Assembly: GCA_052327205.1 (NCBI GenBank)
Contig: CM126208.1
Coordinates: forward strand, 109,430,001 to 109,494,000
Direction: 5' to 3'
Origin: Somniosus microcephalus
Lineage: Eukaryota
DNA length: 64,000 nucleotides
Of the stretch, positions 23,907-48,621 are shown piece by piece (positions within the stretch are counted from its first letter, which is position 1; each line of letters opens with the position of its first letter). The notes below the pieces were generated by a model. The model was not told the DNA's origin and ran no database searches. It saw nothing but the letters and a program-made list of their open reading frames with translations. Both the position numbers and the translations under genes were made by a program.

Positions 23907-24733
23907 CTAGGGAAAGCACATGCAAACAGAATAAACCCCGCTAGACCTCTGTTCAATTGCATTAGAGTGAATAGTTAAAGGACATGTGACAAGGTGGGGA
24001 TTTATCTGTTACTGAATCAAGAAGAAAAATTTCTATATTTTTTTTATTCCTTTTACTCCCAGGTCCCTGTTCTACAGGTACTGCATCCTCAACATTTTGG
24101 ATTAATACCTTTCACAGCATGTCTGTAATTTATCCACCAAACCACATAAACACCATAAAATGAGTCAAAGCTGCCATCATGAAATTTTAATTTTTCAGAG
24201 CTGCGGTAAGCTTTCGATGTCAAACTTTAAACTAGAAAATGCTGCAATTTTTTAGGTTTTCTCCTTCCCTCTCCAAGGACTCTCCAAGATAAGAAGTTTG
24301 AGCCTAGAAATTATATTTGGTATTATTAGCAGACAAATGCTTCTCCTAGAGGGAAAGAGAAGTGAGATGTTCCTCTGCCTGCTGTTAATGGAGACATTAA
24401 CCATTTAATTTAATGGATTAATAAAACGGTGGACACAGCAATGTTATACAAGCACTTAAGTGTTTGCTGTTAATACTGTGTACTAATTTTAATAATCTAT
24501 ATATTTTTCTAATTTTATTTTCCAATATTTACAGAAATCATTTTTGCTGAACTTTAATGGTGGAACAATTAATGTAATTTTGAAACAGAAAACAGTCTAT
24601 CATAACTCAAAGGATTAAAGGTTAAAAGACCAAGTACTAAAGGGGGCAGGGGTTAAATAGTCCTATCTCTGTATAAGTAAAAATAAGATAAAAAGGAGAA
24701 AAATTCCTTATACATTTAAAAAAAAATTATAGT

Positions 24734-25310
24734 GGGCCAACATTTGCGATCGGAGGCTTCCCACGGGCGGGTGCCTCCGACCTGCAAAAATTCTATGAAT
24801 GTACCTGGTGGCCCGAAAAGTACGGAGGCTTGCGATCATGGGCCTCTCTGGGTCCGCGCAGGCAGAGGTCCCCGTATCCCAGGGGTGCAGGTGGTTCGTA
24901 GGCGCCCCTGGGATCACGTGGGCCGGCCCAACCAATAAAAGGGAAGGGTATGTACAGAACTCCAATAAGTATGAATGGCGATCACTTAAAAAAATACACC
25001 AACACATGAAATAATGTTTTTTATTACATATTTAAAATTAATTAAAATGCCATTTAATTAAATATTTTAAACAAAAATTAAATTTTTTGAAGAAAAAAAA
25101 TTATATGTATTTATGGGGCTAAAAATAAACTTACCTTATTGAAGAGTATTTTTAATTTATAAATGAGTGTTAAAATTTTATTTTTCTATTTTTTAAGACT
25201 CTTATGCTTACGCCTGCTTTTACCATGCATGAGAATTTGACAGGCATACAGCGAGCGGAAGTTGTGCAAACATCACAACTCTCCACCCGCAGAGGCCCAT
25301 TTCCCATTTT
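24734..25310. mobile_element. Truncated MITE of the 28241 family
   Basis: Start resembles the reverse complement of 28940-29002; shares CCTGGGATCACGTG and CCAATAAAAGGGAA. Confidence 0.7.
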
Positions 25311-26149
25311 CGGTGAAAGCACAAAACAGGCAATAGCGAATTGGCAGACCGTTTAACACTGCCTTTGATTTTCTTTTCCATTGAAGTCATTGTGTTCTCT
25401 GAATTGATTTATTTTACTTTTCCCATAATTATTTGCAAAAAAGATGGCAAAAAGCCAGAAAGTACCTTCATATTTCCAGATTAGAAAAGGGAAATTAATG
25501 CTTCATGGTCAGTTTCCCCTCCTTTCCTGGCCCACCGTCCTTAAAATGACCCAGGCAATATTAAGCATACTTCTCCTCTCCCTCAAGGAGAAGCCCATGC
25601 TTTGTAATGATATGCTACTATCAAATATAAATATTTTAATTAATTACTCATAATTTTTCAGTTGATATGAACCCTACTTTTTGATTGGTGCAGAACAGTG
25701 GCTTTAATTTATTAGCATCAGTAAGGCTAAATGGTTAATATTCCATGTTTTTACCAGCAAGGAGTTAAAGCTTTGGTAATCCACAACCATCAGCCATGAC
25801 CTCAATGGAGCAACATGGAAAGTAAATAAAACTAAAGGTATTGACAATTTCCTCTTATGTTGCTTAATTCATGGTTAAGAGGATAAAACAGGCACACACT
25901 CACCAACAGTTTAGATTACTAAGTGGAAAACCTTGTCAAATGACCTTTAAGCATGTTACAATGCTTAGCAAACGTGCACTTTACAAACTCAATCATATCT
26001 TCAAACCGTTATTTATGAAACATACACTAAAGGTTGAAGCTGCAATATCCCTTTTCATAGGTTTGTAGAATTGGTTTGTTGTTTAAATGTTTTACAGCTC
26101 CTGGGAAAGATGGACTACCATAATCTACAGTATATACAAATGTTGTGCT

Positions 26150-26540
26150 CATCTCTAGAGGTTGACAGATCAGAACATAATCATTTCATCTTTAGGCCTT
26201 GTGTTTGATTCCAGTTCTGATGGAGGTGAAAGACAGTCCGTTCCCTCTGACTGCTGTGGGCAGTACTGAAATGAGTCTAAATGGAGGCCCAAGTGGACAA
26301 AAGCCCACAGCATAGAAATGGTTTCAAATCTGGTGTTGATTTACACTGATCTCGCAATCTTATTCAGAAGTTATAAGAACAGAGAGAGTGTAGGAATGGA
26401 AATGTGACACTACTGAAGCAAAAGACTTTCTGAAGTTGGGATTGAGGTATTTTATTAGAGGGAAGGAGGAAGCTATGCATTGTAGCCATTTAGCCTGTGA
26501 CATAGCAGACCTTGCTGTATGATGTATTGAGTGCATAGTT
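26150..26540 (+). mobile_element. LF-SINE-like element
   Basis: TTTCATCTTTAGG..GTTTGATTCCAG head, TGAAATGAG, AGTGGACAAAAGCCCACAGCA, GGGATTGAGG; collinear with 705-1075. Confidence 0.45.
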
Positions 26541-28240
26541 TAATTCCCGAGCACTGCATTTGGGAGCACATATGTAAAAAGATAATTAAAGCAACAGAAA
26601 ACTTACCAAAGTGGAATAAAGCTCCAGTAGTGAAGTCATTCCTTTTATTAAAAAACTCGCATTGCTCTCCATTTGATTATTGTGAATGTTTCTCAGCTGG
26701 TTCTTATCCTTCTGATAGATGCATTGTGTGACCACTTATTTAGGTTACCTGCATTTCTAGGATATTGTTTTCCTGCTATGGACTATGGTTAAGTGACACA
26801 ACAGTTCCTGTGTAAAGTTAGAATGACATCACTTTAATTACTTAAATAAGAATAAATCCATGGGGCAGGGAATCCACAGGAGATAGAAGTCCACTGTGTT
26901 ATAAAATGCCAATAATGGGCAATTCATGGTTCATAAGTCAAGGGTGATTTCCTGTGCTGTCATTATATTTCAAGGAAGTCAAACCCAAGTCTGTAAGATG
27001 AAAGGAAAATATGATCCGGCAGCCCGTGCTTTAACTACCAAGTTTTTTTTTAATAAACAAGAAAGAACTAGAATAATAAGTTCAAGTGAGTATGGAGTAC
27101 TGTGACCAGAGGTGTACTAAATAGCTGAGAAATATTCACAGCAATTATAAAGGAGCGAACTACTTCACCCCAGGGGTTTAAGTTCCATTTTTTTTCAAAA
27201 AATGTATGAGGAAGGTCGTCTAAGTAATCAAATAAGAGTTTTATACAGTGATAATTGTAAACCACTTCGCAAACAGCAACAAAGTGAGATAATGCAGTTG
27301 CTTACTTTAAAAAAAATCTTTTTGAAAAGAAATGTAATGCCTATAATAACCCCCAACTTAAAATTTGGAGAGGATACAATTATATCTAATATAACTATAT
27401 ATATATGTTATAAATAATATATTTTAAAAATTCGTTTATGGGTTGTGGGCATCGCTGGCAACGCCAGCATTTATTGCCCATCCCTAATTGCCCTTGAGAA
27501 GATAGTGGTGAGCTGCCCTCTTGAACCGCTGCAGTCCGTGTGGTGAAGGTACTCCCACAGTGCTGTTAGGTAGAACATATAATGTTGTTCCTTGAAGAAA
27601 AACCTTTAAACATGCATTACTAGATGTCTATTCTAACTGTTGTAATAATTGATTGCAAAGTTGAACATCAGGCACTATCTAATAGCAATAATAAACTCAA
27701 AGGCATGCAGATTTTAGAAACAATGCAGATGTTTCATTCATTGTTATGTAATTATGCATGATCATTAAGTGATTATTGACCAGTTATATCTACTGAAAAT
27801 GTTGCATGCATGGTTTCATGTTATAAATGCAGGAGCTGCTTATTGAGCTATATCCCTTCAGTCCTAGACAGCCATACCCACACTATCTAAGTTCATTGAC
27901 AGAGCCCAGCATGCAGATACTGTATTTCCACAAGCACTATCGATACTGCTTTTTGATCAAGCCACCATGAGCAATATCATAAGAGGTTCTACTCCCTCAT
28001 TAAATTTCTCTTCCTTTCCTCCCTTATTCTCAAATGAACCAGTCATCATTAGAAAACTGTTCTACCTCTTCAGAAGAAGCCCACAAACCATCACTCTTTA
28101 ATACAAATTTTGATATCACGCATAATGTCTATTTCTCCCTCATTACTAAAACTAGTCAGCACTGTAACACACTTATTTCATCATTCTGTAACACACTTCT
28201 TTGGTCATCTGTAAAGACAGCCTTACAGCAAGGATTTATT

Positions 28241-29002
28241 GGCCCAGAAATTCGGGTCCCAACGCGTGAGTACGCACGGGGTACTCACGCGTGGACCCGA
28301 TGGAAGTGCCGGTTTCTTGCATGCACTGCGCATGCGCGGGAAACCGGCACTTCCGATCCTCTGAACGAAGAGGTTCAGAGGTCGAACGTGCACGCAGGGG
28401 AGGCTGCGCGTGCGCTTTGAACTTAGTTTTTTTTTGCAGGTTTTCCCGGGAGGGTAAGCCTGCAGGATTTATACATTTAAAAAGCAGGCGTAAGGCCTGC
28501 TTTTTACAAGGTAAGTGGTCAATTAATTAAAATTAAAACATTTTTTCCACAGGTTTATTATTTTTAAATACTTTAAAGCAAGGTAAGTTTATTTTTAGCC
28601 CCGTTTTTTTATTAAATTACTTTTTTCAAAAATTTAAATTATTGTTTAAAATAGTTATTTAATGTAATTTATAGTTTATTTAAAAAGTGTGATTTAAAAA
28701 AAAAATTATTTGAAGGTTTACTGTTATTTTGAGGCCCGTAGCATTCATAAGTTTAGACAGGTCTTCCTGTCAATCTTATGAATGGGCATTTCCCTCCGAT
28801 TGGCTGCCCATGGCTCACGTGATCCCAGGGGACGCATCGCACTAACTACGCCCCTGGGACACACAAGCACAGCGCGCCGGCAGCTGGGCCAGGCCCCGGA
28901 GCGGAATTCCACAGGGCCCTACAGCTCAACTGCCGGCACGCAAGGTAAGTGCAGGTCGGGGGCTTGCACCCGCGGGAAGCCCCCGACCCGAATTTCTGGG
29001 CC
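28241..29002. mobile_element. Harbinger-type MITE (inverted, truncated relative at 24734-25310)
   Basis: Perfect 18-bp TIR GGCCCAGAAATTCGGGTC/GACCCGAATTTCTGGGCC; GC-rich ends with an AT-rich core. Confidence 0.88.
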
Positions 29003-30211
29003 ATGATATCTGATTATGGGTACCCTTCCAAAATGTCATAACCTTTTTTTTTCTCTTTACATATGCTGACTGATCTGTGTATTTCCAGTATTTTATATTT
29101 TTATTTCAGATTTCTAACATTTTCAGTTTTCTTTTTTATTTTACCATATCTTGATAATTTCAGATTACAAATGGGAAATTAATGTTAATTTGAATGAATT
29201 TACCCATAACAGCAATTGAATAGTGAGTGAATAACTGGGTCCATGAGCAATAATCAAATCATTATTAGAATAGCCTTCAGAAAGTGTATCCCAGGATAGA
29301 ACAATAAAAGGTTCTTATCCTTTAATTCCACGCATCAAAGACAATTCTCTTTTGACCTGCTTATGGCATGCCGACGGTATAATTGACTTGATTACATGCA
29401 GATAAATGACTGAAGCTCGGTGTAATAGCAAAACAACCACTGATTGCAATTTTCAGCAAAAGGTTTAAATAATTTTTTCCCCTCTTTCCTGGTTTGCACA
29501 CACAACTGTCACTGTAAAACATTTCTGTAAATCGACCTGGCAGATGAAACAGGGCACTATCAGTAATTGCTAAAACCTTTTATCCTACCACCACCTGGGT
29601 CCCTGAGATTCTACAATGCTCTGGATGCTGAAACTCGCTGCAGAATTTAATGTTTGCTGCAGAAATCACCCGCTGTTCTGGATCAGACAGAAAAGATAAA
29701 TCTGAAAAATGAATATGCTTCCAAATTTCCTGTCCAAATCCAAAGTGTCAACTTGGCTCAGTGGGGAGCACTTTTGTTTCTGAATCTAATGGAAGCAGGA
29801 TAGGGAGCAGGAAGAGGGGAGAGGAGGAGGCAGAAGAGAGGGGGGAACAGAAGAAATGTCAAAGGAGGGGAAGGGGAAGGTAAGAGGGGGAAGGGAAGTG
29901 GGGAGGGAAGTGGAGGAGGAGGAAAGAGAAGGGGAGGAGAATAGAGAGAAAGGAGGGAAGAAGGTGAGGGAAAGAACATAAGAACATAAGAACATAAGAA
30001 ATAGGAGCAGGAGTAGGCCAATCGGCCCCTCGAGCCTGCTCCGCCATTTAATAAGATCATGGCTGATCTGATCCTAACTGCCAATCCACTATCACAGAAC
30101 CATCTCCTGAATCTAACAGAATTAGATACACGAAATAGGAGCAGGATCAGGCTACACGGCCCCTGGGCCCGCTCCGCTACCCACAGGGCCACGACCGATC
30201 CGAACCCAGAC

Positions 30212-33030
30212 TCATGTCCAAATTCCTGCCCGCTCCCCGTAACCCTTAATTCCCTTTACTTCTAGGAAACTGTCTATTTCTGTTTTAAATTTATGTAATG
30301 ATGTAGCTTCTACAGCTTTTCGGGGCAGCATATTCCATGGACCTACCACCCGCTGAGTGAAGTAGTTCCTCCTCATCTCAGTTTTGAAAGAGCAGCCCCT
30401 TATTCCAGGTCTATGCCCCCTAGTTCTAGTTTCACCCATCATCGGGAACATCCTCCCCGCATCCACCCGATCCAACCCCTTCACAATCTTATATGTTTCA
30501 ATAAGATCGCCTCTCATTCTTCTGAACTCCAATGAGTAGAGTCCCAATCTACTCAACCTCTCCTCATATGTCCATCCCCTCATCCCTGGGATTAACCGAG
30601 TGAACCTTCTTTGTACTGACTCGAGAGCAAGTATGTCTTTTCATAAGCATGGACACCAAAACTGTACGCAGTATTCCAGGTGCGGTCTCACCAATACCTT
30701 GTACAACTGAAGCAATACCTCCCTATTTTTATATTCTATCCCCCTAGCAATGAAAGCCAACATTCCATTGGCCTTCTTAATCACTTGCTGCACCTGCATA
30801 CTAACCTTTTGAGTTTCGTGCACCAGGACCCCCAGATCCCTTTGTACTTCAGTACTTTCCAGTTTCTTGCCATTAAGATAATAACTTGCTCTACGATTTT
30901 TCCTCCCAAAGTGCATAACCTCACACTTTCCAGTATTGTATTCCATCTGCCAAATCTCTGCCCACTTACTTAGCCTGTCTATGTCCCCTTGCAGGTTTTT
31001 TATGTCCTCCTCACTCACTACTTTCCCTCCCATTTTAGTATCATCTGCAAACTTTGATATGTTACACTCGGTCCCCTCCTCCAAATCGTTAATATAGATT
31101 GTAAAGAGTTGGGGACCCAGCACTGACCCCTGCGGAACACCACTAGTTACTGATTGCCAGTCTGAGAATGAACCATTTATCCCAACTCTCTGCCTTCTGT
31201 TAGATAGCCAATCCTCTATCCATGCCAGAATATTACCCCCAATCCCGTGATTTTTTATCTTAAGCAATAATCTTTTGTGTGGCACCTTGTCAAATGCCTT
31301 TTGGAAGTCTAAATACACTACGTCCACTGGTTCCCCTTTATCCACCCTATATGTTACTTCCTCAAAGAATGCCAGCAAATTTGTCAAACATGACTTCCCC
31401 TTCATAAAACCATGCTGACTTTGTCCTATTAAATTATGATTATCCAAATGTCCTGTTACTGTCTCCTTAATAATGGACTCCAAAATTTTACCTACCACAG
31501 ATGTTAGGCTAACTGGTCTATAGTTTCCAGCCTTCTGTCTACTGCCCTTTTTAAATAAGGGTGTTACATTAGCAGTTTTCCAGTCTGCCGGGACCTTTGC
31601 TGAGTCCAGGGAGTTTTGGAAAATTATTACCAATGCATCCACAATCCCTACCGCCACTTCCTTCAAGACCCTAGGATTTAAGCCATCAGGTCCAGGTGAT
31701 TTATCCGCCTTGAGTCCCATTATTTTACAGAGTACCACTTCCTTAGTGATTTTGATCGTGTTTAGCTCCTCCCCCCCATAGCCCCCTGTTTGTCCAGTGT
31801 TGGGATATTCTTAGTGTCCTCTACTGTAAAGACTGATACAAAATATTCATTCAGTGTTTTTGCCATCTCCATATTTCCCACCATTAATATCCCGGTCTCA
31901 TCCTCTAAGGGACCAACATTTACTTTAGCCACCCTTTTTCTTTTTATATAACTATAAAAACTCTTACTATCTGTTTTTATATTTTTTGCTAATTTACTTT
32001 CATAATCTATCTTCCCTTTCTTAATCAATCTTCTTGTTATTTTTTGCTGTCTTTTAAAGTTTTACCAATCCTCTATCCTCCCACTAGATTTGGCTACCTT
32101 ATATGCCCTTGTTTTTAGTCGAATACTATCCTTAATTTCTTTACTTAGCCACGGATGGCTGTCTTTTCTTTTACACCCTTTTCTTCTCAGTGGAATATAT
32201 ATTTTTTGGAAGTTGTAAAATAACTCCTTAAATGTACACCACTGATCATGTATCGTCTTACCCTTTAATCTATTTTCCCAATCCACTCTACTCAATTCCG
32301 CTCTCATAACTTCATAGTCTCCTTTATTCAAGCTTAGCACGCTTGTTTGAGATCCAACCTTCTCACCCTCTAATTGAATATGGAATTCAACCATGTTATG
32401 GTCACTCATTCCAAGGGGATCCTTTACTAGGACATTTTTTATTAATCCTGTCTCGTTACACAGGACCAGATCTAAGGTTGCTTGCCCCCGGTCGGTTCAG
32501 TTACATACTGCTCAAGAAACCCATCCCTAATACACTCAATGAACTCATCCTCAAGGCAGCCCTGCCCAATTTGATTTGTCCAATTAATATGATAGTTAAA
32601 ATCCCCCATAATTATAGATGTTCCCTTATTACAAGCCTCAACTATTTCCTGATTGATACTCCGTCCAACAGAGTTGCCACTGTTCGGAGGCCTATAGACT
32701 ACACCCACTCGTGTTTTTTTCCCCTTACTATTCCTTACCTCCACCCAAACTGTTTCATTATCCTGATCTTTTGACCCAATATCATTTCTCTGTATTACAG
32801 TGATTCCTTCCTTTATTAACATAGCCACCCCACCTCCCCTTCCTTCCTGCCTGTCCTTCCTGATTGTTAAATAACCTGGTATGTTTAATTCCCAGGCATT
32901 GTCACCCTGCAGCCATGTTTCTGTAATGGCCACAAGATCATACCCCTATGTAGTTATTTGTGCCATTAACTCGTCTATTTTGTTATGAATGCTACGTGCA
33001 TTCAGATAGAGAACTTTCAAATATGTTTTG
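30212..33030 (-). pseudogene. CR1 ORF2 (APE endonuclease + reverse transcriptase), broken by stops/frameshifts
   Basis: LKVLYLNARS, ITETWL, GDFN, SDH, KSPGPDG, YLDFQKAFD, GVPQGSVLGP and KFADD motifs spread across ORF fragments. Confidence 0.93.
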
Positions 33031-33400
33031 TGACACTTAGGCCTAGAAATTCATTGTAGCCACTTTTGGGGCGGTAAAGTCGGGCGGCCGCTAAAGTTTG
33101 CGCCCGGCGCAAAATCGAGGCCACTTCTCCGATATTCATTAGCTTCGCCCTAAGAGTTTGCTCGAGCGCTAAAACTGGCGCTGCACGCCTCTCTTTAGGC
33201 GCTAAGCCGGAGGTGCTGAGCGAGAGCGCCGAGGCCGGGCGCAGCGCAGGTGCGGCCATCTCGTGATTGACAGCAGACACCCTGGCGCCGGCCAGCTCTT
33301 AAGGGGGAAGGGTCGACTTGGTCTGCTGCCACGCCCTGGATAGTGGAGCCCTCCAGCTAGGCCTGAACACTGCTGCTGGACCCAAATAGCACCTGAAGCC

Positions 33401-35626
33401 ATGCAGAAGGCCCGTGAACGAGCGCAGCGCTTCTCAGAGCTTGATCTGAGTGTGCTGGTTGGTGGTGTGGAGAAGAGGCGCCATATTTTGTACCCGGACA
33501 ATGGCAGGAAGGCGCTGGTCCGTGTCTACCGGAGAGCGTGGAGGCACGTCGCCAGCAAGGTGTCAGCCAACAGCGAGGTCCCCAGGACCGGTGTCCAATG
33601 CCGCAAAAATTTTAATGACCTCACTCAGATTGTCAGGGTGAGTACCCTTTCCAGTGTCCTCATCCTTGCATGTGCACCTCACATTATGGGCAAAGGGACC
33701 TGAAAGCCCTAATGGCCAGCCCTCATCCAGCAGCTATTGGACAGGCATGAACATCAATTGCACATTCTGCACTTAACACACTGGCCAAGCTATTCCACCA
33801 TGGGAGGCAGTGCACACAAGATCAGGGCTACACACTGGCCAGGCTATTCCACCATGGGAGGCAGTGCACACAAGATCAGGGCGACACACTGGCCAGGCTA
33901 TTCCACCATGGGAGGCAGTGCACACAAGATCAGGGCGACACACTGGCCAGGCTATTCCACCATGGGAGGCAGTGCACACAAGATCAGGGCGACACACTGG
34001 CCAGGCTATTCCACCACGGGAGGCAGTGCACACAAGATCAGGGCTACACACTGTACTTAGAGGCCGTCCTTTCTCTTGCAGGCCAAGCTGGCCAATAATA
34101 AGAAGAGCCGGACTGCGACCGGGGGAGGCCGACCCCAGATCCAGCCGCTCACCGAGCTGCAACATCGCGTGGAGCGCATCATGGGTGGCCGGGTGATTGG
34201 CCCCGTTGCATGTGGAGATGCCGACCCTGTTCTGGGCACCAATGGTAAGGACATCACCTTTTGGACCTCTCTCGTCCCACTTGCGCATCAGATCTACATC
34301 CTTTGCCACTGTCCGACCAATGCGCTGAATGCCACCACTCATGCATCCCTCGCTGATGCCCTCTCCTCACTCTAAAGCTACTTTTGTGCCTTCCTGCTTT
34401 CAGATGGTGAGGAGGAGGTCCCTGAACTTGCCAGTGACAGCCCCTCAGAAGAGGAGGAGGAGGAGGAGCAAGAGGAAGGCGGCCCATCAGGGGAACCCTC
34501 AGCCACGGCAACCCATGCGAATGTAGGGGACACGTCTTCCCTGGAGGGGAGCGTGGCGGAAGTGTCGGAGGGGAGGGGAGCTCATGGGACCTGCGGCCTG
34601 CAGAAACGCGGGAGGGGGGTGGAAGCTCAGCGGCCTTCTCCCCAGAGGGGGGAAGGGTCGGAGGGGAGTCCAATTGCTGGGCCCAACGGCGTCCAGCAAC
34701 GCAGGAAGGGTCGGCCAGCTCGGCGGCCTTCTCCCCAGAGGGGGGAAGGGTCGGAGGGGAGTCCAATTGCTGGGCCCAGTGGCATCCAGCAATGCAGGAA
34801 GGGTCGGCCAGCTCGGCGGCCTTCTCCCCAGAGGGAGAGTCCGGCCTCCAGTCCGGAGATGGTCTTCGCCGAGGAGATGGAACGCGTCGAGGACTTGTCC
34901 GCGGACTCGGAGCGCCGGCACACGGAGCTCATGGGGGTAGTGGCACGGTTGCCTGAGGCCATCGAGTCCCTCTCTCGGAGTGTGACCGAAGTCGGGGCCT
35001 CACAGGCCATCAGTTTGGCGGAATTCGGGGCAGAGCAGGCAGCGAGTCGGGCGGCATTCGGGGCAGATCAGGCAGCGAGTCGGGCGGCATTCGGGGCAGC
35101 TCAGGCAGCGAGTGGGCAGCTGATCAGTGGTGCCGTGCAGTCACTGGGTGCTCTGATGAGGTCACTGAACAGGTCAACACGGGCACTCACTGCTGCCACA
35201 CTTGCTGTGTCAGCCAGGCATCGCCAGGGCACCCGGCGCGCTGCAGCAGCACAGCGGTCTGTCCCTCGGCAGATTGGTGCACATGCTGCAGTGCTGGCCC
35301 GGGCGAGTGCCAGTGTCTCAGGCGACCAGCGAGCGCCTGCCATCCGCCAGCTTGCCCCCATTCCTCCAGCCGCCACTGCCACTCCCCCAGTGGAGCTGCC
35401 AGGAGCTGCTGCAGCGACTGATGCTGGCCAGCCACAGCTGCAGCATTCAACAGCCGCCCGCTCGACGGCCAGACCTCGACTAGGCCGACCCCCAAGGGCA
35501 TCTGCCGTCACGACATGTGCCCCTCTGGAGCCTGCCCCCAGCCTTGCAGCAGCCAATGGCCTTACTTTGAGGAGGAGCAGCAGGGCGGGCAGGGGCCACA
35601 CAAAGATGGCCAAGGCATCGCCCTAG
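33401..35626 (+). CDS. Harbinger Myb/SANT-like DNA-binding partner protein, 3 exons (33401-33637, 34082-34244, 34404-35626), 540 aa
   Basis: RAQRFSE...AWRHVA...RTGVQCRKNFNDL followed by AKLANNKKSRTATGGG; donors gtgagt and gtaagg, acceptors ttgcag and ttcag; phases 0 and 1 join into one 1623-nt open frame. Confidence 0.88.
33776..34053 (+). repeat. 54-bp tandem repeat x5 in intron 1 of the Harbinger Myb gene
   Basis: Unit ACACACTGGCCAGGCTATTCCACCATGGGAGGCAGTGCACACAAGATCAGGGCG; homologous 2-copy array at 16631-16738. Confidence 0.95.
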
Positions 35627-36059
35627 CGGGCCAAAAAGTCGAATGTGTGGCCAGTTGTGTTTGTTTTTTGAGGCCGAGAATTGGATGTTTGTTTTTTGAG
35701 GCCGAGAATTGGATGTTTGTTTTTTGAAGGCAGAGAATTGGATGTTTGTTTTTTGAAGGCCGAGGATGTGATGTTTGTTTTTTACGAAGGCCGAGGATGA
35801 TGGCCATTTTAGTTGCACTGTTTTGTTAATCCTCTCCAGGTTGTGGGAGCGAGTAATGTGTTTGAGTGTTTTTTGGGGGTTTCGTCTGTTTTTGGTTTTC
35901 ATGTGGGAAGGGCCCTGAGTTTGTACAATAAAGCATTTTATTTATTAACATTGTCCATGTTTGATCTTTGAAGTGTTTGTTGCCTTAACCGGCTGAGGGC
36001 TTGCGGAGCGGCTGCAATCATGTTCTTTCATTGGCACAAGCCATTCCCTGACAGGGGGC

Positions 36060-37205
36060 CTAGAAGTGACGTTCAATAAGCCGCCGATGAGTGGCCCTTG
36101 GACCTTGTGCCTCCCTCCTGGGCTGGTACTCCTCATCCTCCTCCTCCTCATGCTCCTCCTGCTCCTCCTCCTGAGGTGGTGGTCCAACGTGAGGTGGCAG
36201 TGCCTGAGTCCTGCGGATAGCCAGGTTGTGCAGCATGCAGCAAACGACGACGAATTGGGAGACTCGCTCCTGCGAATATTGGAGGGCTCCCCCGGAGTGA
36301 TCGAGACAGCGGAACCGTTGCTTGAGGACGCCGATTGTTTCTTCTATAATGTTCCTAGTCGCTTGATGGCTCTCATTGTATGCCTCTTCAGCAGGGGTCG
36401 TGGGCGCGCGGAGCGGGGTCATGAGCCAGGTACACAAAGGATAGCCTTTGTCTCCGATAAGCCATCCTCTTGGGTGAGGCTGTGCCTGGAACATGTCAGC
36501 CACAGTTGTCTGTCGCAGGATAAAGGCATCGTGGCTGCTGCCTGGAAAGCGGGCATTGACAGCTAGGATGCGCTGCCTGTGGTCACACACCAGCTGTACG
36601 TTGAGGGAATGGTAGCCCTTCCGGTTGCGGTAATCCTCGGCATGCTCCAGAGGTGCCCGCAAAGCCACATGCGTGCAGTCAATGGCGCCCTGCACCATGG
36701 GGAAGCCTGCTATTCTTGCAAATCCCACTGCACGCTGCTGCTGCTTGTCCAGGGTCATGGGGAAGGAGATGAATTGATGTCTCCTTCTGAAAAAGGCTTC
36801 GGTCACCTGCCGGATGCAGCAATGCATGGCGAACTGGGAGATGTTAGCGATGTCCCCAGCAGCGGATTGGAAGGAGCCGGTGGCATAGAAGTTGAGAGCC
36901 ACCGTCACCTTCACTGCCACCGACAGAGACATCCTGCGCATCAGCTGTGGCTGCAGATCTCTGTGAAGCAGCTGGCAGATGTCTGCAACCACCTCCCTTC
37001 TGAATCGCAGCCTCCTAACACACATCGCGGCAGACATGGTCAGATAGGAGGACTGCTGGCGGTATACCCTGGGTGGGTAAGGCCTCAGTTGGCGACGCCT
37101 GTTGCCCCCTCTGTGTCTAGCCAGGGCTGCCACTCTCTCACAGCGTCTGTAAGCCCTTCTGGCATAAGGCTGAAAGTCAGCGTTGGCACCCAATGCAGCC
37201 CCCAT
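36060..37205 (-). CDS. Harbinger DDE transposase (HARBI1-like), 381 aa, intact
   Basis: Uninterrupted ORF with GAIDCTH, YRNRKGYHSLNVQLVCD, PGSSHDA, GDKGYP, R..IE and CCMLHN motifs. Confidence 0.95.
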   Translation of the reverse strand: MGAALGANADFQPYARRAYRRCERVAALARHRGGNRRRQLRPYPPRVYRQQSSYLTMSAAMCVRRLRFRREVVADICQLLHRDLQPQLMRRMSLSVAVKVTVALNFYATGSFQSAAGDIANISQFAMHCCIRQVTEAFFRRRHQFISFPMTLDKQQQRAVGFARIAGFPMVQGAIDCTHVALRAPLEHAEDYRNRKGYHSLNVQLVCDHRQRILAVNARFPGSSHDAFILRQTTVADMFQAQPHPRGWLIGDKGYPLCTWLMTPLRAPTTPAEEAYNESHQATRNIIEETIGVLKQRFRCLDHSGGALQYSQERVSQFVVVCCMLHNLAIRRTQALPPHVGPPPQEEEQEEHEEEEDEEYQPRREAQGPRATHRRLIERHF

Positions 37206-37874
37206 TATATGCTGGCAAACACTGAGCTCTCAATGAAGGCAAAGATAATTGCTAAGCTCTGGCCTGAGCCAAAAATACCTGTCCTAGTGTTGGTCCAAAC
37301 CAGTAAGCTCTCCTCCTTGGTCTCGCTCCAAAAAACCGTTGCACAAGAGTGAATGCTGCAAAATGGCTGGCCTTTATAGTGCAGGGTAAGTGCCCTTTAA
37401 TTAGCGCTCCCCGCGGCCTGCCTCGGCTGTGTACCGTTCCACTTCACAGTTGTTAGGGCCGCCCGGCGCACAATGGGCCGGCGCGAGTGAAGTTCCGGTT
37501 CGGGGCGCACAAAGGGCGTTGCACGACGAAATGACGTCATGATCTGCGCGCGCAGCAGGGCGCGCGCTAAGACTTTGCGCCGGCGCTAAATGTGTACTGA
37601 AGTTGGGGCAAGGCGCAGATCGCGCTGCGCCCGGGCGCTAAGCGCCTGGCGCTCGAGATCTACTCCTCCTAAGGCGCTAACGGCTGGCGCGCCCAACTGA
37701 ATTTCTAGGCCTTAGTTCCTGCATTTGCCCTTTTTATTACTTTACCTTTTACTCCATACCTTCTGCCCCTTCCTGACACGCTCTGGTTTTTAATTTCTCC
37801 ACTGCTACCTAAGTCTATGACCTTCTCTGTTGTCATTTTTATTATTTGCTCTCTAGGAACCTCCCCCCCACTAG

Positions 37875-38811
37875 TTAGTTTAAAGCCCTCTCTACAGCCC
37901 TAGTTATATGATCCGCCAGGACTCTAGTCCCAGCACTGGCCAAGTGAAGCCCGTCCCAACGGAACAGCTGCCTCCTGCCCCAGTACTGGTGCCAGTGTCC
38001 CAGGAAGCAAAACCCATTTCTCCCACACCAGTCTTTGAGCCACGCATTTAACTCTCTAATTTTATTTGTCCTAGCCAAATTCGCTCATGGCTATTACCCT
38101 TGTGGTTCTGCTTTTTAATTTGGCCCCTAGCTGCTCAAACTCCCTCAGCAGAACCTCCTTCCTTGTCCTATCTATGTCGTTGGTACCAACATGGACCACG
38201 ACAACTGGATCCTCCCCCTCCCACTCCAAGTTTCTCTCCAGTCCAGAGGAGATGTCCTTAACCCTGGCACCGGGCAGGCAACACAGCCTTCGGGACTCTC
38301 GCTCTCGGCTGCAAAGAACTCTATCTATCCCCCTAACGATACTATCCCCTACCACTACAACATTTCTTTTAACTCCCCCCACTTGAATGGCCCCCCGCTC
38401 CACGGTGCTGTGGCCAGGTTGCTCATCCTCCCCGCAGTCCCTGTTCCCATCCTCACAGGGAGTAAGAGCCTCGAACCTGTTGGACAAGTGCAAGGGCTGC
38501 GGCTCCTCCAACACTACCTCCTGGATCCCCGTACCTGCCTCACTTGTAGTCATACCATCCTGACCCTGGCCACGGACTACATCTGAATTAATTAATCTAA
38601 TTGGTGTGAATACCTCGTGATACACAGAGCCCAGGTAACTCTCCCCCTCCCTGATGTGTCTCAGTGTTTGAAGCTCGGTCTCCAGCTCTTCAACACGGAG
38701 CCGGAATTCCTCGAGCAGCCAACACTTACTGCAAATGTGATCACTGTGAACATCAATGGTGTCCACCAGCTCCCACATATTGCAGCAGCAACACATCACC
38801 TGATCTCCCAT
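37875..38811 (-). pseudogene. CR1 ORF1 (Cys-rich N-terminus, coiled coil, SGNH/GDSL esterase), frameshifted near 38075
   Basis: CNMWE...CSKC...LRVEELETEL; VGDSIVRG, CLPGARV, HVGTND and WDGLHL esterase blocks. Confidence 0.9.
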
Positions 38812-39034
38812 TCTATGTAATTAATTAAATTTATTAATATTATTCTTAAATACCCTCTGCCGCGATTCTAGATGGTGAATATCAAAGCTTAGAAACTATA
38901 AACCAAAGAGATTTAAGCTTAAAAAGGGAGAAATACTCACCAACCAATCACTTACCTGCTTTCTGGTGACGTCACACTTGGGTTACTTTTTACCTCTCTC
39001 CTTCCCTCCGAGTTCCCAGACTGGAGACTGGAGA

Positions 39035-39447
39035 GCCTTACCTGGTCTCTGGGACTTTTATAGCCCCGCTCTGCCGCTGAGTTCCCGCCGACGCACTGAC
39101 GCCTTACCTGGTCTCTGGGACTTTTATAGCCCCGCTCTGCCGCTGAGTTCCCGCCGACGCACTGACGCCTTACCTGGTCTCTGGGACTTTTATAGCCCCG
39201 CTGCTGCCGCTGAAACACCCGCCGACGCACTGAGGCCTTACCTGGTCTCTGGGGCTTTTATAGCCCCGCTGCTGCCGCTGAGTTCCCGCCGACGCACTGA
39301 GGCCTTACCTGGTCTCTGGGACTTTTATAGCCCCGCTGCTGCCGCTGAAACACCCGCCGACGCACTGAGGCCTTACCTGGTCTCTGGGACTTTTATAGCC
39401 CCGCTGCTGCCGCTGAAACACCCGCCAATGCACTGAAGCCTTACCTC
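39035..39447 (-). repeat. Tandem 66-68-bp monomers (x6) in the CR1 5' UTR
   Basis: Element-sense unit ...GCGGGGCTATAAAAGTCCCAGAGACCAG|GTAAGGC; two unit variants. Confidence 0.92.
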
Positions 39448-41079
39448 AATGGTGAGGTAAGGAGGGTATGAGGAGAGGAGGGTATGAGGAGGGCAGGGTG
39501 AGATGGAGAAAGGGGAGGAGCGAGAGAGGCAAAGAGGAAGGAAGGAGAGAGAAAGATGAGGAGAGGGGAATAGGGAAAGAGAAGCAGAGGAGAAAGAGGG
39601 AAAATGGGGAAGGAATGGCTGGAGGGGGGAGAAGAAAGGAGAGTGGAGGGGAGGAGAAATGGAGGGGATGAGAAGAGGAGAAGGGAATGCAAAGGAGGAA
39701 AAAGAAATCTAGGTCAAGGACAGGAATGTGGATTGGGATTTAGTGGCAAACTGTCTGAGCTGAAGGTGGGGGGTGCGCCTGGTGGGAAACAACCTCTGGG
39801 GAATATCCCGGGCAACAAAAGAGCTCAGCAGGGAGAAGCCAGGTGACAAGATGCTTTGGGGGACAGATGTCAACCAGAAAATTGCCATGGAGGAAGAGAA
39901 GAACGGAAAAGATCCTGAATGAGGAGTGGATGGTGCTGGGGGGTTTGTACCATGTAGAGTAACACCTGTACTGCAAAGGTAACGGTGTCAGTGGAATATT
40001 CTTAACCATTCCTAATTGTTACCGTCCTTTATATTTCCTATTCCTATCATTCGCTTGTCTGATTTCTTGCTCTTCCTGCCATTGTCCTGTGTTACTTTCA
40101 AAATCTGGCTAGTTTATCATCCATGGAATTGCTCATACACAAAATGGACAGGTTTTGTAATAGCAGATCTGATATAAATTAATTCAAGCAAACAAAAATT
40201 CCAATGTTAATTGAAGTTAAGAACTCATAGATTTATAATGTATTTAATAAATCGATATTTAAATATGGGGAGGCATTTCTTAACTATTATTAAAGAAATG
40301 TAATAAGCAATTTAATTATTAAATGTAATCATTAATTTAATTATGAAATTGAGTGATTTATATTAATGAATTAATTATTTTAATAAATTATTACATTTAG
40401 TAAGTCATTTAATTATAAAATAGAATGAGTAGCTTAGTTATAAAATGGAATGAATTCCTTCCCCCTGCCCTGCCTCCCCTGACATCATGGGCCATGTTTG
40501 GGGTTGATGACTGTTTTGCCCCAGTCAGGCACCGACAGAAACTCACAGCCGAGTCTGAGACCTAGGGTACCTGAGACCCGATTTCCATGATGCTATGCTG
40601 CACTCCTGACCAACTTATGTCAAGACTCACCACAGGCCCTGTGGAAATTCATGGTGTTGTTATCTAAGATAACCAATGAAGAATAGCCCCTTGTGCGGGT
40701 ACAGAAGGGCAAGTATTGCCAATAGAAGATGGAAACTGAGCTGAGCAAGGAGCTATCCCCTTTCGGAGAAGGGGAGGGAGAGAACTGTCAGAAAAAGAAG
40801 AGATAAAAGAAAGAAAAAGAGGTGACATTTAAAATAATTAATCCTAGATTACAAAGGACTCATAGGTTGTGGCTCTCTATTTCTTCTCATCCTCCTCAAC
40901 CTGTCTGTCAACATTGACAGTATTGACCACTCTATGTTCTTCCAATTGTAGGAACACCATCACCTACAAATTTCCCTCCAAGTCACACACCATCCTGACT
41001 TGGACACTGGAATTCCATCGTTATTGTTAGGTCAATATACTGGAATTCCTCAACTAACTTCATGGGAACACCACAGAAT

Positions 41080-42665
41080 GATAGAAAGTTACAGCATGGA
41101 AGGAGGCCATTTCAGCCCATCGTGTCCACGCCAGCCAACAAAGAGCTATCCAGTCTAATCCCACTTCCCAGCTCTTGGTCCATAGCCCTGCAGGTTAGAA
41201 CATCTCAAGTGCACATCCAAGTACTTTTTAAATGTGGTTAGGGTTCCTGCCTCTATCACTATTTCAGGTAGTGAGTTCCAGACCCCCACAATCCTCTGGG
41301 TGAAGAAATTTCCCCTCAAATCCCCTCGGAACCTTCCACCAATTACTTTAAATCTGTACCCCCTGGTTTTTGACCCCTCTGCTAAGGGAAATAGGTCCTT
41401 TCTATCCACTTTATCTATGCCCCTCATAATTTTAGACACCTCCCCTCAGCCTCCTCTGTTCCAAGGAAAACAGACCCAGCCTATCCAGTCTTTCCTCATA
41501 GCTAAGATTCTCTACTCCTGGCAACATCCTTGTAAATCTCCCCTGTACCCTCTCTAGTGCAATCACATCTTTCCTGTAATGTGGTGACCAGAACTGCACG
41601 CAGTACTCTAGCTGAGGCCTAACTAGTGTTTTGTACAGTTGAAGCATAACCCCCCTGCTCTTGTATTCTATGCCACAGCTAATAAAGGCAAGCATTCCGT
41701 ATGCCTTCTTAACCACCTTATCTACCTGGCTTGCTACCTTCAGGGATCTGTGGACATGCACTCCAAGGTCCCTTTGTTCCTCTACACTACTCAGTGTCCT
41801 ACCATTTAATGTATATGCCCTTTCCTTGTTAGCCCTCCCTAAATGCATTACCTCACACTTCTCCGGATTGAATTCCATTTGCCACTGTTCTGCCCACCTG
41901 ACTAATTTATTGATATCTTCCTGCAGTCTACAGCTTCCTTCTTCAGTATCAATCACACAGCCGATTTTAGTATCATCTGCAAACTTCTTAATCATACCCC
42001 CTATATTCAAGTCTAGATCATTGATATATACCACAAAAAGCAAGGGACCTAGTACTGAGCCCTGCAGAACCCCACTGGAAACAGCCTTCCAGTCACAAAA
42101 ACACCCATCAACCAATACCCTCTGCTTCCTGTCTCCGAGCCAGTTTTGAATCCAACTTGACACTTTGCCCTGGATCCCATGGGCTTTTAACTTCGTGACC
42201 AGTCTGCCATGTGGAACCTTATCAAAAGCCTTGCTAAAGTCCATATACACTACATCAAATGCACTACCCCCATCTACCCTCCTTGTTACCTCCTCACAAA
42301 ATTCAATCAAGTTTGTCAGACATGACCTTCCCTTAACAAATCCGTGCTGACTATCCTTGATTAATCCGTGTCTTTCTAAATGAAGATTTATCCTGTCCTT
42401 CAGAATTCTTTCCAATAATTTTCCCACCACCGAGTTTAGGCTGACTGGCCTGTAATTACTCGGTCTATCCTTTTCTCCCTTTTTAAACAAGGGTACCACA
42501 TTAGCAGTCCTCCAGTCCTCTGGCACCATACCTGAAGCCAGAGAGGATTGAAAAATGATGGTCAGGGCCACTGCTACTTCCTCTTTTGCTTTGCTTAACA
42601 GCCTGGGATACATTTCATCTGGGCCTGGGGATTTATCCACTTTTAAAGCTGCTAAACCCCTTAAT
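41080..42665 (-). mobile_element. 5'-truncated CR1 LINE (RT region)
   Basis: ORF 41432-42712 with KSPGPD, MDFSKAFD, QGSVLGP and KFADD; CR1 3' end near 41080. Confidence 0.93.
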
Positions 42666-43417
42666 ACTTCATCTCCACAAGGACTGTAGAGTTCAAGAAG
42701 CAGGCCCACCACTACCTTCTCAAGGCGCTAGAAATGGGCAATACATGTGGCTTGGCCATCATCAACCACATCCTAAGAACAAATTTTTAAAAAGGTATTG
42801 GAAGGAGGGTTCTGGAGTTTGGGAGCAGTGGTCATGGGATGTGGAAGCACTGGGAAAAATGGTGATGACGTTTGACAGCACTGAGACTAGGGTCTGGCAG
42901 GGATGATAATGAGATGATGGGGTATGGCAGCGCTGGGGGGGTGGGGGGTGGGGTACCCTAGGGTGTGGTAGAAGTGTGAGACAAGCCCAGGGTTTCGGAG
43001 CATAGGGAGGGATATGGTGGTGTGTGGGACCATTAGGGAGGACGTTACTAGGTGTGTGTGTCCTGGGAGAAGAGTTTCAGGATGCCACTGGTGATAGCAT
43101 TTTTCTCAGGGCATATCAGCAGTGGAAATACATGGATGTTTGATGTGAGGATGGAAGCAATGAGAGCTGTCAGAAGAGAGTAGTGGGGGGAGAAGATGTG
43201 GATACTCAGTTGGGAGAGTTGAGTTTCAGGAGGAGTGGATTTCTGAAAATGTTTCCTGAGCCGTAAGTTAAGGAAACCTGCATTATTTAATTTTTTCTGT
43301 GCATTTTAAATGAGTAGCTGTACTGATTTTAAAAGTTTTAAAGGTTTTGGAAGCCAGTTCCCAGTAATGGCCAGGACTGCAGCGACAGTGGGAGAATTGT
43401 TGGGGAGGTGGCAGCTG

Positions 43418-45171
43418 GAGACCAACTAAATACATATTTTGGTTCTGTCTTCACAAAGGAGGACACAAATAACCTCCCAGAAATACCGCAGAACATAGGG
43501 TCTGATGAAAGGGTGGAACTGAAAGAAATCAGTATTTGTAAGGAAATGGTGCTAGGAAAATTGATGGGACTGAAGGTCGATAAATCCCCAGGGCCTGATA
43601 ATCTACACGCTAGGGTACTTAAGGAAGTGGCCCTAGAAATAGTAGATGCATTGCTGGTCATCTTCCAGAACTCGATAGACTCTGGAACAGTACCCATGGA
43701 TTGGAGGGTAGCTAATGTTACCCCACTATTCAAAAAAGGTGGCAGAGAAAAAGCGGGGAATTATAGACCAGTAAGCCTGACATCGGTAGTGGGGAAAATG
43801 CTAGAGTCCATTATAAAAGATGTAATAGCAGAGCACTTGGAAAGCAGTGACAGGATCGGACAAAGTCAACATGGATTTACAAAAGGTAAATCATGCTTGA
43901 CTAATCTACTGGATTTTTTTGAGGATGTAACTGGTAAAATAGGAAAGGGAGAACCAGTGGATGTGGTGTATTTGGACTTTCAGAAGGCTTTCGATAAGGT
44001 CCCGCATAAGAGATTAGCATGCAAAATTAAGGCACATGGGATTGGGGGCAAGGTATTGACTTGGATAGAGAACTGGTTGGCGAACAGAAAGCAAAGAGTT
44101 GGAATAAACGGGTCATTTTCCGAGTGGCAGGCAGTGACTAGTGGGGTACCGCAAGGATCGGTCCTAGGACCCCAGCTGTTCACAATATATAATAATGATC
44201 TAGGCGAGGGAATTGGATGTAATATCTCCAAATTTGCAGACGACACAAAGCTGGGTGGGAGGGTATGCTGTGAGGAGGATGTCGTGAAACTCCAGTACGA
44301 TTTGGACAGTTTAGGTGATTGGGCAGAAACATGGCAAGTGCACTATAATGTGGATAAATGTGAGGTTATCCACTTTGGTGGCAAAAACAGGAAGGCAGAT
44401 TATTATTTGAATGGCAATAGATTGGGAGAAGGGGAAGTGCAAAGAGACCTGGGTGTTCTTGTGCACCAGTCGCTGAAGGTAAGCATGCAGGTGCAGCAGG
44501 CGGTTAAGAAGGCAAGTGGTATGTTGGCCTTCGTAGCAAGAGGGTTCGAGTACAAGAACAAGGATGTCTTGCTGCAGTTGTACAGGGCCTTGGTGAGACC
44601 GCACCTTGAGTATTGTGTGCAGTTTTGGTCACCTTACCTGAGGAAGGACGCTCTTGCCATGGAGGGAGTTCAGCGAAGATTCACCAGGCTGATACCTGGG
44701 ATGGCAGGAATGACGTACGAGGAGAGATTGTGTCAATTGGGCTTATACTCACTGGAGTTTAGAAGATTGAGAGGAGATCTCATCGAAACCTATAAAGTTC
44801 TGTCAGGTCTGGACAGACTAGATGCAGAAAGGATGTTCTGATGGCCGGTGAGTCCAGAACCAGGGGTCATTGTCTAAGGATAAGGGGTAAGCCATTTAGG
44901 ACTGAAATGAGGAGGAATTTCTTCACCCAGAGAGTGGTGAACCTGTGGAATTCTCTGCCACAGAGGGCGGTGGAGGCCAGTTCATTAAATATATTCAAGA
45001 AAGAGTTGGATATATTTCTTGAGGCTAAAGGGATCAAGGGATATGGGGAGAAGGCAGGGACAGGGTACTGAATTTGGATGATCAGCCATGATCTCATTGA
45101 ATGGCGGAGCAGGCTCGAAGGGCCGAATGGCCTACTCCTGCTTCTATCTTCTATGTTTCTATGTTTCTATG
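43418..45171 (+). mobile_element. 5'-truncated CR1 LINE, young
   Basis: 477-aa RT ORF; 3' stem-loop and (TTCTATGT)n tail. Confidence 0.95.
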
Positions 45172-47380
45172 GAGAGAGGCAGGCCTAGAAATTGGATATG
45201 GCCTGAAAACGGGCGGTGTCATGCCCCAGCACTATTTGGATATGCCTGTTCAGAATGGTCCAGGCAGCAGGCAAAATTCATGCTGAATGCTCATTTACAC
45301 GACTGTAGTGCTGATCTCAGCACTAAACACGTTGCTGATTGGCTTACCGCTCAATGGGTGGGTCAATATCAAGTGATGTCTAAAGGCCAGTAATGTTTGA
45401 CCTAGTCTTCTCCACTATTTAAAAGGGGCGGTGCTTTGATGCGGCAGCGCCTCATTGTCATTGGAGTTGGAACTGGAATTGGAATTGCAGTTGTTGTGTG
45501 AACACAAGGCTGAGCACCAGCAAAGAGAACGAGCCAGAAGGTTTTCCGATGCGGCTGTAGAGGCTGTGTTGAGGAGTTGGGAGACACAAAACTTAGGTGT
45601 TATAACACTGTCACTGGCTGGGAGGTGCAACTGCAGGTTGATGTCTTTACATAGGCAATTTCCATTATAAATGTGGACTTAGAAATTTATAGTAGGAAAA
45701 GTTGGCAGGAAGTGTGTGTAGTGGTAAGACATTTTTAATATATTATGGATTTTTTTTTAAGTATATATAAAATAGAACAGCTCTCCTGTTAATCACAGTT
45801 AGTCTGGGGTCTGGAGAATGGTTGTGATGCTTAACCGCTATCCTGCCCTGTCCTTGTGGAAATCTAGGTAATTATCGCTGCTTGTAATTGCAGCTGGTTA
45901 TAGCTGAGGTCAATTGGAGGTCAGTAATTTACTTGTAATTTTAGGCTCCAGGTCAATGGCTGGCTTTCTTTTTTAAAGATTTTTTTGCAACTGTAACAAT
46001 GTATGACACTTTGGAGTGTAATGTTTGGTGTGTAACATCTGGAGTGTGATGGACTCAAGCTAGCTCCAAGACATAAATAGATGAAAGTCCTTGCTGAAAT
46101 GCTCTGCAGCCCCAAAAGACAAAACTCTTCTATTTGTAATAAAAGCCCTATTTTCAAGGCTGTTTTATCCATTGTGACACATCATGTTAAGCCTCTGTTA
46201 GTAAACCTGTCTTGTCAAGAATAACAGATTAACTCTTATTACTGCAACTACACTGTCATAGTATTACAGATTATTTAATAATTAAACGTCCTATCAGAAT
46301 TGATCCAAGTGTCAGTGAAGTTTACTGATTTGGAACTGATCCTTTAAATACCAAATAACATTTTATTTATGCAAGTTTATTGATCCGAAGCGTTTCATTC
46401 CTAATGCTACAGTTATTCTGCAGCAAGTGTACCAACATCAGTAGGTCAATGGAGGCTGTCTAGTAGTATTATAAAATGCAGGAAGTCAGAATTCCATACA
46501 TTTATATGCAAAAACAAACACATGAACACAGTGCTGCTTGCACGCTTCTGACTGCAGCTGCTGTTTTCTTCAGTGACTACCAACTGCAGGCAGAGCAATA
46601 TATTTCAGTCCTTTAAAAACTGAATAGTACTGTGGTTTGCAAGTTTCTTTTGGAAAACTTTATCTGAATGTTATCTTTGTGATATGCATACACAAATCAG
46701 GCCCTTACAGATTGTAGTACATCCCCTACAGTTACTTGAACATTAATATCACATCTGCAAAATCCTCCCATGCTGTCAATCTAATTGTAACTGGACAAAG
46801 ACTGTCTTCAACACAGTTCCTTAGGTTTTGATGAAATAATTTCTGTTCTATTGCAGGTGTTGTGTTCAGACTGTTTGCAAATATTGAGAAAGCCTCCATT
46901 TTATTTCAAATTAAACTGTCTCTTCAGAGGATCAACTTAAATTTGAATCACTCTCAGTCTATTTCTGCTAAGTCCCTTTTGTTTTTCTTCTTGTATAGAT
47001 CCCTTCTCTCCACCAACTTATCCCCTGTGACCATCTTAGCTTCTTTGCTTAAGAGTACATTTCCATGGGATGGGCATCAATGTTCCTCCATAATTATTCT
47101 GGCAGGAAGCACACTGGGATATAGGAAAAGACCCATTTCCAGCCCATTTTCCCTCTCAATCCCAGATAATTTGGCTGAAAACTACTAACTCTCCCTTAGG
47201 GGAGTCCACGTCGGTCAGAACTGGGATCTAAACCACAGTCTCCTCGCAGACAGACTAGTTATCGGGAATAAAATGCTTATTTTTGATTTGCAAAATAGCC
47301 TTAAGAAAGCTGAATTATGGTCTATCAACACTTATCAATCAACCATAAGTACAAGAATCCGTACATTATACAGCAATATT

Positions 47381-48319: not shown

Positions 48320-48621
48320 ATTATGTCCAAGGGGGCGTGAAAAATAAAATTGGCAAATCTGCAGAATAAGTGGGGTGCTTTACTGCTTTGTTTTCTGTCT
48401 CATTACAAAATTGCTGGTTATATTTCCAAAGAAACAAGAAAACTATCGGTACTAATATGTGCAAGACTTCACAGGTATGATTTCAAAAAGTAAGTACATG
48501 ATGATGGTAGCAGGATTTCATGGGAAGATTATCACTTCTACTGATCGGTAAATAACTCCATTACATGAATTACACTAAACCACAACACCTGAGAAGTTAG
48601 ATCAGATAAAAGTTGTCTTAC

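Follow-up and report, generated by a model that had tools for sequence, protein, structure and literature searches.

The question raised by this 64,000-nucleotide stretch of contig CM126208.1 of Somniosus microcephalus (hereafter the window) is what kind of Harbinger transposon lies in it, and whether that transposon could still move. An earlier note had pointed to an apparently intact, potentially active two-gene element in a vertebrate intron. We found that positions 33040-37711 delimit, to the base, a full-length PIF/Harbinger element. It is in all likelihood (probability about 0.85) an autonomous-type member of a shark/ray lineage, which inserted at a TTA in a pre-existing CR1 long interspersed nuclear element (LINE) within an intron of ADCY8, after both that LINE and a neighbouring sister copy had begun to decay.

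A full-length two-gene Harbinger element

The sequence features expected of an autonomous-type PIF/Harbinger are all present: terminal inverted repeats (TIRs), a 3-bp target-site duplication (TSD), a transposase of DDE_Tnp_4/HARBI1 type with its catalytic residues, and a second gene of Myb/SANT type. The perfect TIRs and TTA duplication claimed for the ends are indeed there, as exact 14-bp reverse complements with TTA on both sides, and this is the sole pair in the 64-kb window that combines a 14-bp perfect inverted repeat with a 3-bp direct repeat within 10 kb. The TIRs are shorter than the 25-50 bp usual for PIF/Harbinger elements (PMC9179366) and close to the 15 bp of Pong/mPing (PMC11254759); here and below, what we attribute to cited papers is limited to the excerpts available of them. 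Inside the ends, nine copies of GCGCWAA, a motif picked post hoc after inspecting the sequence, lie within 200 bp of one or other end, where 0.79 would be expected (0/5000 simulations). The element is also richer in GC than the window (0.59 versus 0.46), which contains no N bases and, within its 64 kb, no near-identical copy of the element. Its ends and non-coding signals, together with the sister copy to which it is compared throughout, are as follows.

33037..33039, no strand: left copy of the TTA target site (direct repeat; empty-site frame test)
33040..33053, plus strand: left TIR, 14 bp, exact reverse complement of 37698-37711
33097..33205, no strand: left subterminal cluster in which GCGCWAA occurs four times; candidate sites for Myb binding
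35927..35942, no strand: adjacent, opposed AATAAA signals, putatively serving the two convergent genes; both kept in the sister
37564..37680, no strand: right subterminal cluster in which GCGCWAA occurs five times; candidate sites for Myb binding
37698..37711, minus strand: right TIR, 14 bp, exact reverse complement of 33040-33053
37712..37714, no strand: right copy of the TTA target site (direct repeat)
15695..20078, plus strand: decayed sister Harbinger, full length, 75% identical, in the same orientation, with 16-bp TIRs and TAA/GAA flanks

We considered and rejected an ISL2EU identity. That group is defined by a second open reading frame (ORF) encoding a YqaJ exonuclease (PMC9179366), whereas the second gene here is Myb/SANT, and a Pfam scan of the three Myb exons gave no YqaJ match.

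The transposase gene

The uninterrupted 381-residue transposase with its conserved motifs, as first proposed, stands up well to comparison.

36060..37205, minus strand: Harbinger DDE transposase, 381 aa, with D176/D226/D252/E288 (stop-free ORF and Pfam match)

It covers all 158 positions of the Pfam DDE_Tnp_4 model (E 9.3e-39). In a comparison with 120 homologues, mismatches are absent from the 33 columns that are at least 90% conserved and number two in the 91 columns that are at least 80% conserved, where the median of the 86 well-covered homologues is 10. The closest named proteins among the best 120 of 422 matches come from Pristiophorus japonicus (67%), followed by Heptranchias and rays. 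A tree was built from 51 of the 122 rows, namely those with good coverage that either carry a name or come from the window. In it the two window copies group together (100/97), and this pair is nested in a larger clade of 28 rows, all of them elasmobranch (100/99). A sequence search of the PDB with the transposase profile returned no match.

Two details of this gene are recorded separately. There is a possible short intron in the 5' untranslated region, upstream of the transposase ATG at about 37212-37279 on the minus strand, which could change the gene model. A TATA-like site at 37373-37378 was not relied on, its position not being conserved in the sister.

Among the homologues, P0004, P0011, P0014, P0015, P0016 and P0018 form a 100/100 clade with one sequence per genus from six shark/ray genera, short branches and degenerate catalytic aspartates; from its sequences, this clade looks like an elasmobranch-specific domesticated Harbinger transposase. 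Similar domestication may apply to the smaller cross-species groups P0069/P0020/P0026, P0053/P0063, P0013/P0017 and P0007/P0008.

The Myb/SANT gene and its splicing

The second gene starts at an ATG at 33401, and its three exons, once spliced, encode 540 residues with one terminal stop. Just as had been remarked, the program-made list of ORFs breaks this gene into fragments.

33401..33637, plus strand: Myb exon 1, aa 1-79, DNA-binding trihelix (Myb_DNA-bind_5 match, E 8.3e-12)
33638..34081, plus strand: Myb intron 1, 444 nt; a 54-bp unit is repeated five times in tandem at 33776-34045 (consensus sites shared with the sister)
34082..34244, plus strand: Myb exon 2, with a KLA.N...GGG...LTE helix conserved in homologues (homologue alignment)
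34245..34403, plus strand: Myb intron 2, 159 nt, length and sites the same in the sister (sister comparison)
34404..35626, plus strand: Myb exon 3, with an acidic linker, 93-bp and 33-bp repeats, a helical segment at aa ~290-400 (found in homologues too) and a basic tail

We did not accept the open frame as proof of this splice model, since, when GT-AG pairs up to 30 nt away from the four sites are combined, 119 of the 525 possibilities are open as well. The sites themselves are more telling: the donors read GTGAGT and GTAAGG, the acceptors are pyrimidine-rich, and all four lie at the same aligned positions in the sister. A HMMER search of representatives with exon 1 gave 59 matches, 19 of which (at least 43% identity, E no greater than 1e-6) were used for the Myb comparisons. 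Under a hidden Markov model (HMM) built from just these 19 homologues, the N-terminus scores 152.1 bits when spliced and 111.4 when not, and the junction 33637/34082 is used by all seven best-scoring candidates. The three-exon partner that had been put forward is therefore upheld, with the first junction strongly supported by these comparisons; the second rests on its GTAAG donor, its pyrimidine-rich acceptor and a 159-nt intron common to both copies. In a set of 5.8 billion proteins searched with exon 1 for longer proteins, none of 39 candidates passed, and an atlas search with the helical segment of exon 3 gave no usable match.

An acceptor-like pyrimidine tract ending in CAG/G lies 3' of the Myb stop, at 35821-35841 on the plus strand, and is kept in the sister; it could change the gene model.

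The Myb introns are better conserved than the exons around them. Between the two copies (33638-34081 and 34245-34403 against 16499-16774 and 16938-17096) they are 80-84% identical, compared with 69% at fourfold-degenerate sites and 71% in the Myb exons. At sites that are not CpG-prone, 139 of 174 intron positions are identical against 51 of 80 fourfold-degenerate ones (Fisher p 0.008, from one pairwise comparison). The 54-bp unit of intron 1 is present five times in the element and twice in the sister. Rfam searched over the element gave no match at E up to 1, offering no known RNA family as an explanation for the conserved introns; nor do the intron substitutions show a clear codon periodicity, and only one of 24 frames is stop-free (in intron 2 of the sister). 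The conservation may reflect a cis function or local variation in rate.

Insertion into a CR1 LINE within ADCY8

The element splits a LINE that lies in an intron of ADCY8, as the proposal of a vertebrate intron required.

30224..33039, minus strand: ORF2 of the host CR1 LINE (endonuclease and reverse transcriptase), with three stops and two frameshifts
37712..38820, minus strand: ORF1 of the host CR1 LINE (GDSL-like, with a single frameshift), together with the beginning of the ORF2 frame
23907..48621, minus strand: ADCY8 intron, 24,715 nt, GT..AG, holding the LINE and the element

The exons on either side of this intron match residues 550-639 and 640-705 of ADCY8 (PDB 8buz). Deleting the element along with one TTA makes the ORF2 frame of the LINE continuous again. 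Upstream of the junction, a named LINE protein from a stingray can be aligned to this restored frame with no additional gap, while keeping both TTAs produces an added residue. This empty-site test drew on eight of the 120 listed LINE matches (named cartilaginous-fish proteins), and just one of these was sufficiently similar on the upstream side of the junction to be informative. To judge from its coding sequence, the LINE that the element split is dead.

Four ADCY8-like exons are seen on the minus strand, near 53.2, 48.7, 23.8 and 23.2 kb, and two of them were confirmed against PDB 8buz. Other remnants of CR1-type reverse-transcriptase ORFs lie at 41432-42727, 43342-44841, 57366-57911 and 61552-63715, and blocks of simple repeats at about 5.7-7.3 kb and 12.9-14.7 kb of the window.

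Age and selection

We counted no disabling change in the 2,769 coding nucleotides of the element, against six in about 3,800 nt of the host LINE and four in about 2,490 nt of the sister (Poisson p ~0.012 for the element's zero in each comparison). By this count of lesions, the element is younger than both. In simulations of neutral decay, the 5% bound falls at about 1-1.5% divergence when indels are included and rises to as much as about 3% when indels and CpG excess are both left out; the age of the element is thus probably within about 1-1.5% divergence under the former model. At 1% divergence, the simulated chance that both frames are still open ranges from 2 to 45%, depending on the indel and CpG settings. 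With the mutation rate of 7e-10 per base per generation reported for another species, the epaulette shark (PMC10587355), 1% divergence corresponds to about 1.4e7 generations. Since shark mutation rates are this low, intact frames are only weak evidence that a copy is recent, and open frames are compatible with some 10^7 generations.

Comparison with the sister shows purifying selection on both genes along the lineage, as read from their substitution patterns. The ratio of non-synonymous to synonymous rates (dN/dS) amounts to 0.20 in the core of the transposase and to 0.41 in the N-terminal part of the Myb protein. Moreover, 4 of 17 CpG-type changes in the Myb gene of the element are non-synonymous, where 69% would be expected under neutrality (p 1e-4); in the sister, the count is 19 of 26.

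Could this copy still move?

Several observations weigh against the main reading given above or against taking competence for granted. Polarised with homologues, it carries more derived residues than the sister in both proteins (12 versus 8 in the transposase, 6 versus 1 in the Myb N-terminus), and its private transposase substitutions include T92M, P312Q and L138F. In the Myb protein, K70N and R76Q both fall in the third helix, within the CRKKFNDLTR segment, which we take to be the DNA-recognition helix of the trihelix domain. The CpG-type changes of the transposase are non-synonymous in 8 of 11 cases, which is indistinguishable from neutral. By HMM, the proposed model with the second Myb junction at 34244/34404 ranks third of 119, 3.1 bits below the best. 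Finally, no protein relative above 67% identity was found among the best 120 of 422 matches.

The private missense changes at conserved sites could be traits of a subfamily or damage suffered after insertion, and it is on this point that the two leading explanations part. The copy may be open but dead, a few missense mutations (R76Q, T92M, R373H and others) having ended DNA binding or catalysis, with the family extinct or driven from elsewhere; to this we give about an even chance. R76Q, T92M and R373H are each a single CpG transition relative to the sister, the usual mark of post-insertion decay. Position 70 is basic in 19 of 19 Myb homologues and position 76 is an arginine in 18 of 19, and the simulated probability of 2-45% that neither frame would be interrupted at 1% divergence, over about 1.4e7 generations, also favours such an end. 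Six of the 12 transposase departures, however, involve two codon positions that differ from the sister, a pattern that fits subfamily or lineage evolution better than recent point decay. All eight CGA codons are intact, the three departures at 22 conserved Myb columns lie inside the homologue range of 0-4, and the TIRs and TSD are perfect.

The same residues would read differently if the copy were a currently competent source and its private residues subfamily traits, for example a Myb specificity fitted to its own GGCCTAG-type TIR. The outer bases of the TIR differ from those of the sister, which makes a shifted recognition helix plausible. Neither gene has a stop or a frameshift, the catalytic residues, splice sites and opposed polyadenylation signals are intact, and the CpG changes of the Myb gene are mostly synonymous. 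On the other side stand the low shark mutation rate, which makes this intactness a weak sign of recency, and the finding that DNA transposons make up just 1.58% of one shark genome, where recent activity is dominated by LINEs (PMC12498223). On these features, we regard continued competence for transposition as possible, though somewhat short of probable. The bolder proposal of a live germ-line source of an undescribed elasmobranch Harbinger family, whose native two genes would mobilise cargo in vertebrate cells without reconstruction, seems to us unlikely.

Both frames could also have been held open by host selection on a domesticated transposase/Myb pair, similar to HARBI1/NAIF1. Domesticated Harbinger genes are known in vertebrates (PMC9392472), and some elasmobranch homologues look domesticated. 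This copy, however, retains its TIRs and TSD and sits in a dead LINE, a sister of mobile type lies close by, and annotated shark proteins offer no near match to it (best 67%, among the best 120 of 422 matches); we hold its domestication to be very improbable. Still less credible is an artefact of assembly or consensus, or foreign DNA. A GC-rich block of 0.59 in a 0.46 window might raise that suspicion, and assemblies may collapse repeats; on the contrary, the junctions are precise to the base, with a TSD in a continuous LINE frame, the proteins are of elasmobranch type, and the window has no N. We thus return to a full-length, autonomous-type element of a shark/ray lineage, and its structural intactness makes it reasonable to regard it as a candidate for a naturally working Harbinger.

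The sister copy and other Harbinger-like sequence

The sister lies 13 kb from the element, beyond the ADCY8 exon at about 23.1 kb. Its transposase frame is open and carries D226N and several R>W/C changes, its Myb gene has four internal stops, and its TIR differs from that of the element in the outer bases. Upstream of its Myb gene, at 15913-16113, we noted by eye a 201-bp TG...CA insertion with CAGCC/CGGCC flanks that resembles a short solo long terminal repeat.

A further sequence at 28241-29002 (762 bp, non-coding) has TIRs of about 18 bp like Harbinger ends (GGCCCAGAAATTC...), an observed/expected CpG ratio of 1.02 and no clean 3-bp duplication; it is probably a miniature inverted-repeat transposable element, and a diverged partial relative of it lies at 24874-25185. 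Single Harbinger-like ends or remnants with AGAAATT-type termini occur at about 49650-50345, 45182 and 53872, with GCGCWAA at 49705-50296; no partner ends were found for them.

Proposed mechanism and significance

By analogy with Harbinger3_DR and Ping/Pong, the spliced Myb protein would bind the ends of the element, probably at the TIRs and the GCGCWAA clusters. It would also bind the N-terminus of the transposase and import it into the nucleus, as described for related systems (PMC2836001, PMC9392472, PMC11254759), and the region C-terminal to the Myb domain would make this contact, as in HDP1/HDP2 (PMC5339849). The DDE enzyme would then excise the element and reinsert it at TTA/TAA with duplication of 3 bp, both proteins being needed.

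Full two-gene Harbingers do exist in elasmobranchs, which is a small-scale answer to a question raised about cartilaginous fish: no Harbinger was found in the elephant shark, and a survey of other cartilaginous fish was called for (PMC9179366). Harbinger-type repeats are listed for a reef shark genome (PMC12498223). We found no description of a full-length elasmobranch Harbinger in the literature searched, whose scope left out most subscription papers, supplements, Repbase and Dfam. Within that same literature, no cell assay of a native vertebrate Harbinger was found, and the 130 transposons of Zhang et al. 2024 may include Harbingers. In that literature, the animal two-component assay concerns a reconstructed element only, while its plant equivalent, Pong, has already been developed for engineering. 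Should the native ORFs prove functional, two-component transposition by Myb protein and transposase could be tested with them in animal cells straight away. Were the copy a live source, targeted integration in the manner of Pong could draw on a native two-component transposase from an animal, DNA transposons would still be moving in one of the slowest-mutating vertebrate genomes, and the Myb introns, conserved above synonymous sites, would carry a cis function of the element. If instead it is not functional, it illustrates how little, in sharks, an unbroken frame says about recent activity.

Comparison with known systems

That Harbinger transposition needs two proteins, and that zebrafish Harbinger3_DR had to be reconstructed, agrees with a paper citing that work (PMC2836001). 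By its description, Harbinger3_DR/Harbinger3N_DR resembles the shark element in its DDE transposase and Myb-like gene, its TIRs and its 3-bp duplication. It was, however, rebuilt from a consensus and is mobile in human cells, whereas the shark element is a single native copy known from sequence, and its duplication has the core CWG where ours is TTA (PMC3016246). The flanks of the shark element agree with the Harbinger3_DR target consensus (PMC3016246) at 7 of 12 outer positions (p ~0.014, a post hoc comparison at one site).

The nearest parallel for a native vertebrate Harbinger with both ORFs intact is Harbinger-Snek of sea kraits, with 269 intact copies in Laticauda colubrina and, in L. laticaudata, one intact copy with reads over both genes (PMC8437027). 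The element described here is therefore not the first intact vertebrate Harbinger, and the rarity of intact copies that the earlier note implied was overstated, also because all four catalytic residues (D/D/D/E) are kept in 45 of the 106 homologues having residues at these positions. Harbinger-Snek was acquired horizontally and is documented by genome-wide data, while the shark element is one copy within an elasmobranch clade. Two-gene Harbingers that are abundant or transcribed have been described in other host lineages, namely coelacanth LatiHarb1 and those of newt and teleosts (PMC3787270, PMC5741667, PMC9179366), and an active family in a nematode (bioRxiv 10.64898/2026.05.26.728016; all in excerpt).

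Rice Ping/Pong and mPing resemble the shark element in the TTA/TAA target and in a requirement for two proteins, which the shark element would share; binding to 15-bp TIRs is theirs (PMC2836001, PMC11254759). These plant elements are proven active and serve as a targeted-integration tool with hyperactive variants (PMC2836001, PMC11254759). Since excision in yeast was negligible with the native, unmutated proteins of Ping and Pong (PMC2836001), intactness is no guarantee of usefulness as a tool; besides Pong, the native PHIS-group cgSpy would be a competitor (PMC11304231).

Closest in descent are the proteins labelled "putative nuclease HARBI1" in Pristiophorus japonicus, Heptranchias perlo and other elasmobranchs, which belong to the same clade with up to 67% identity (among the best 120 of 422 matches). 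Their labels are automatic, and many, as the 45 of 106 above indicate, have lost one or more catalytic residues. Domesticated genes of the HARBI1/NAIF1/MSANTD type are recognised by an orthologue conserved between species and by the loss of TIR and TSD, whereas the shark element keeps its TIRs and TSD.

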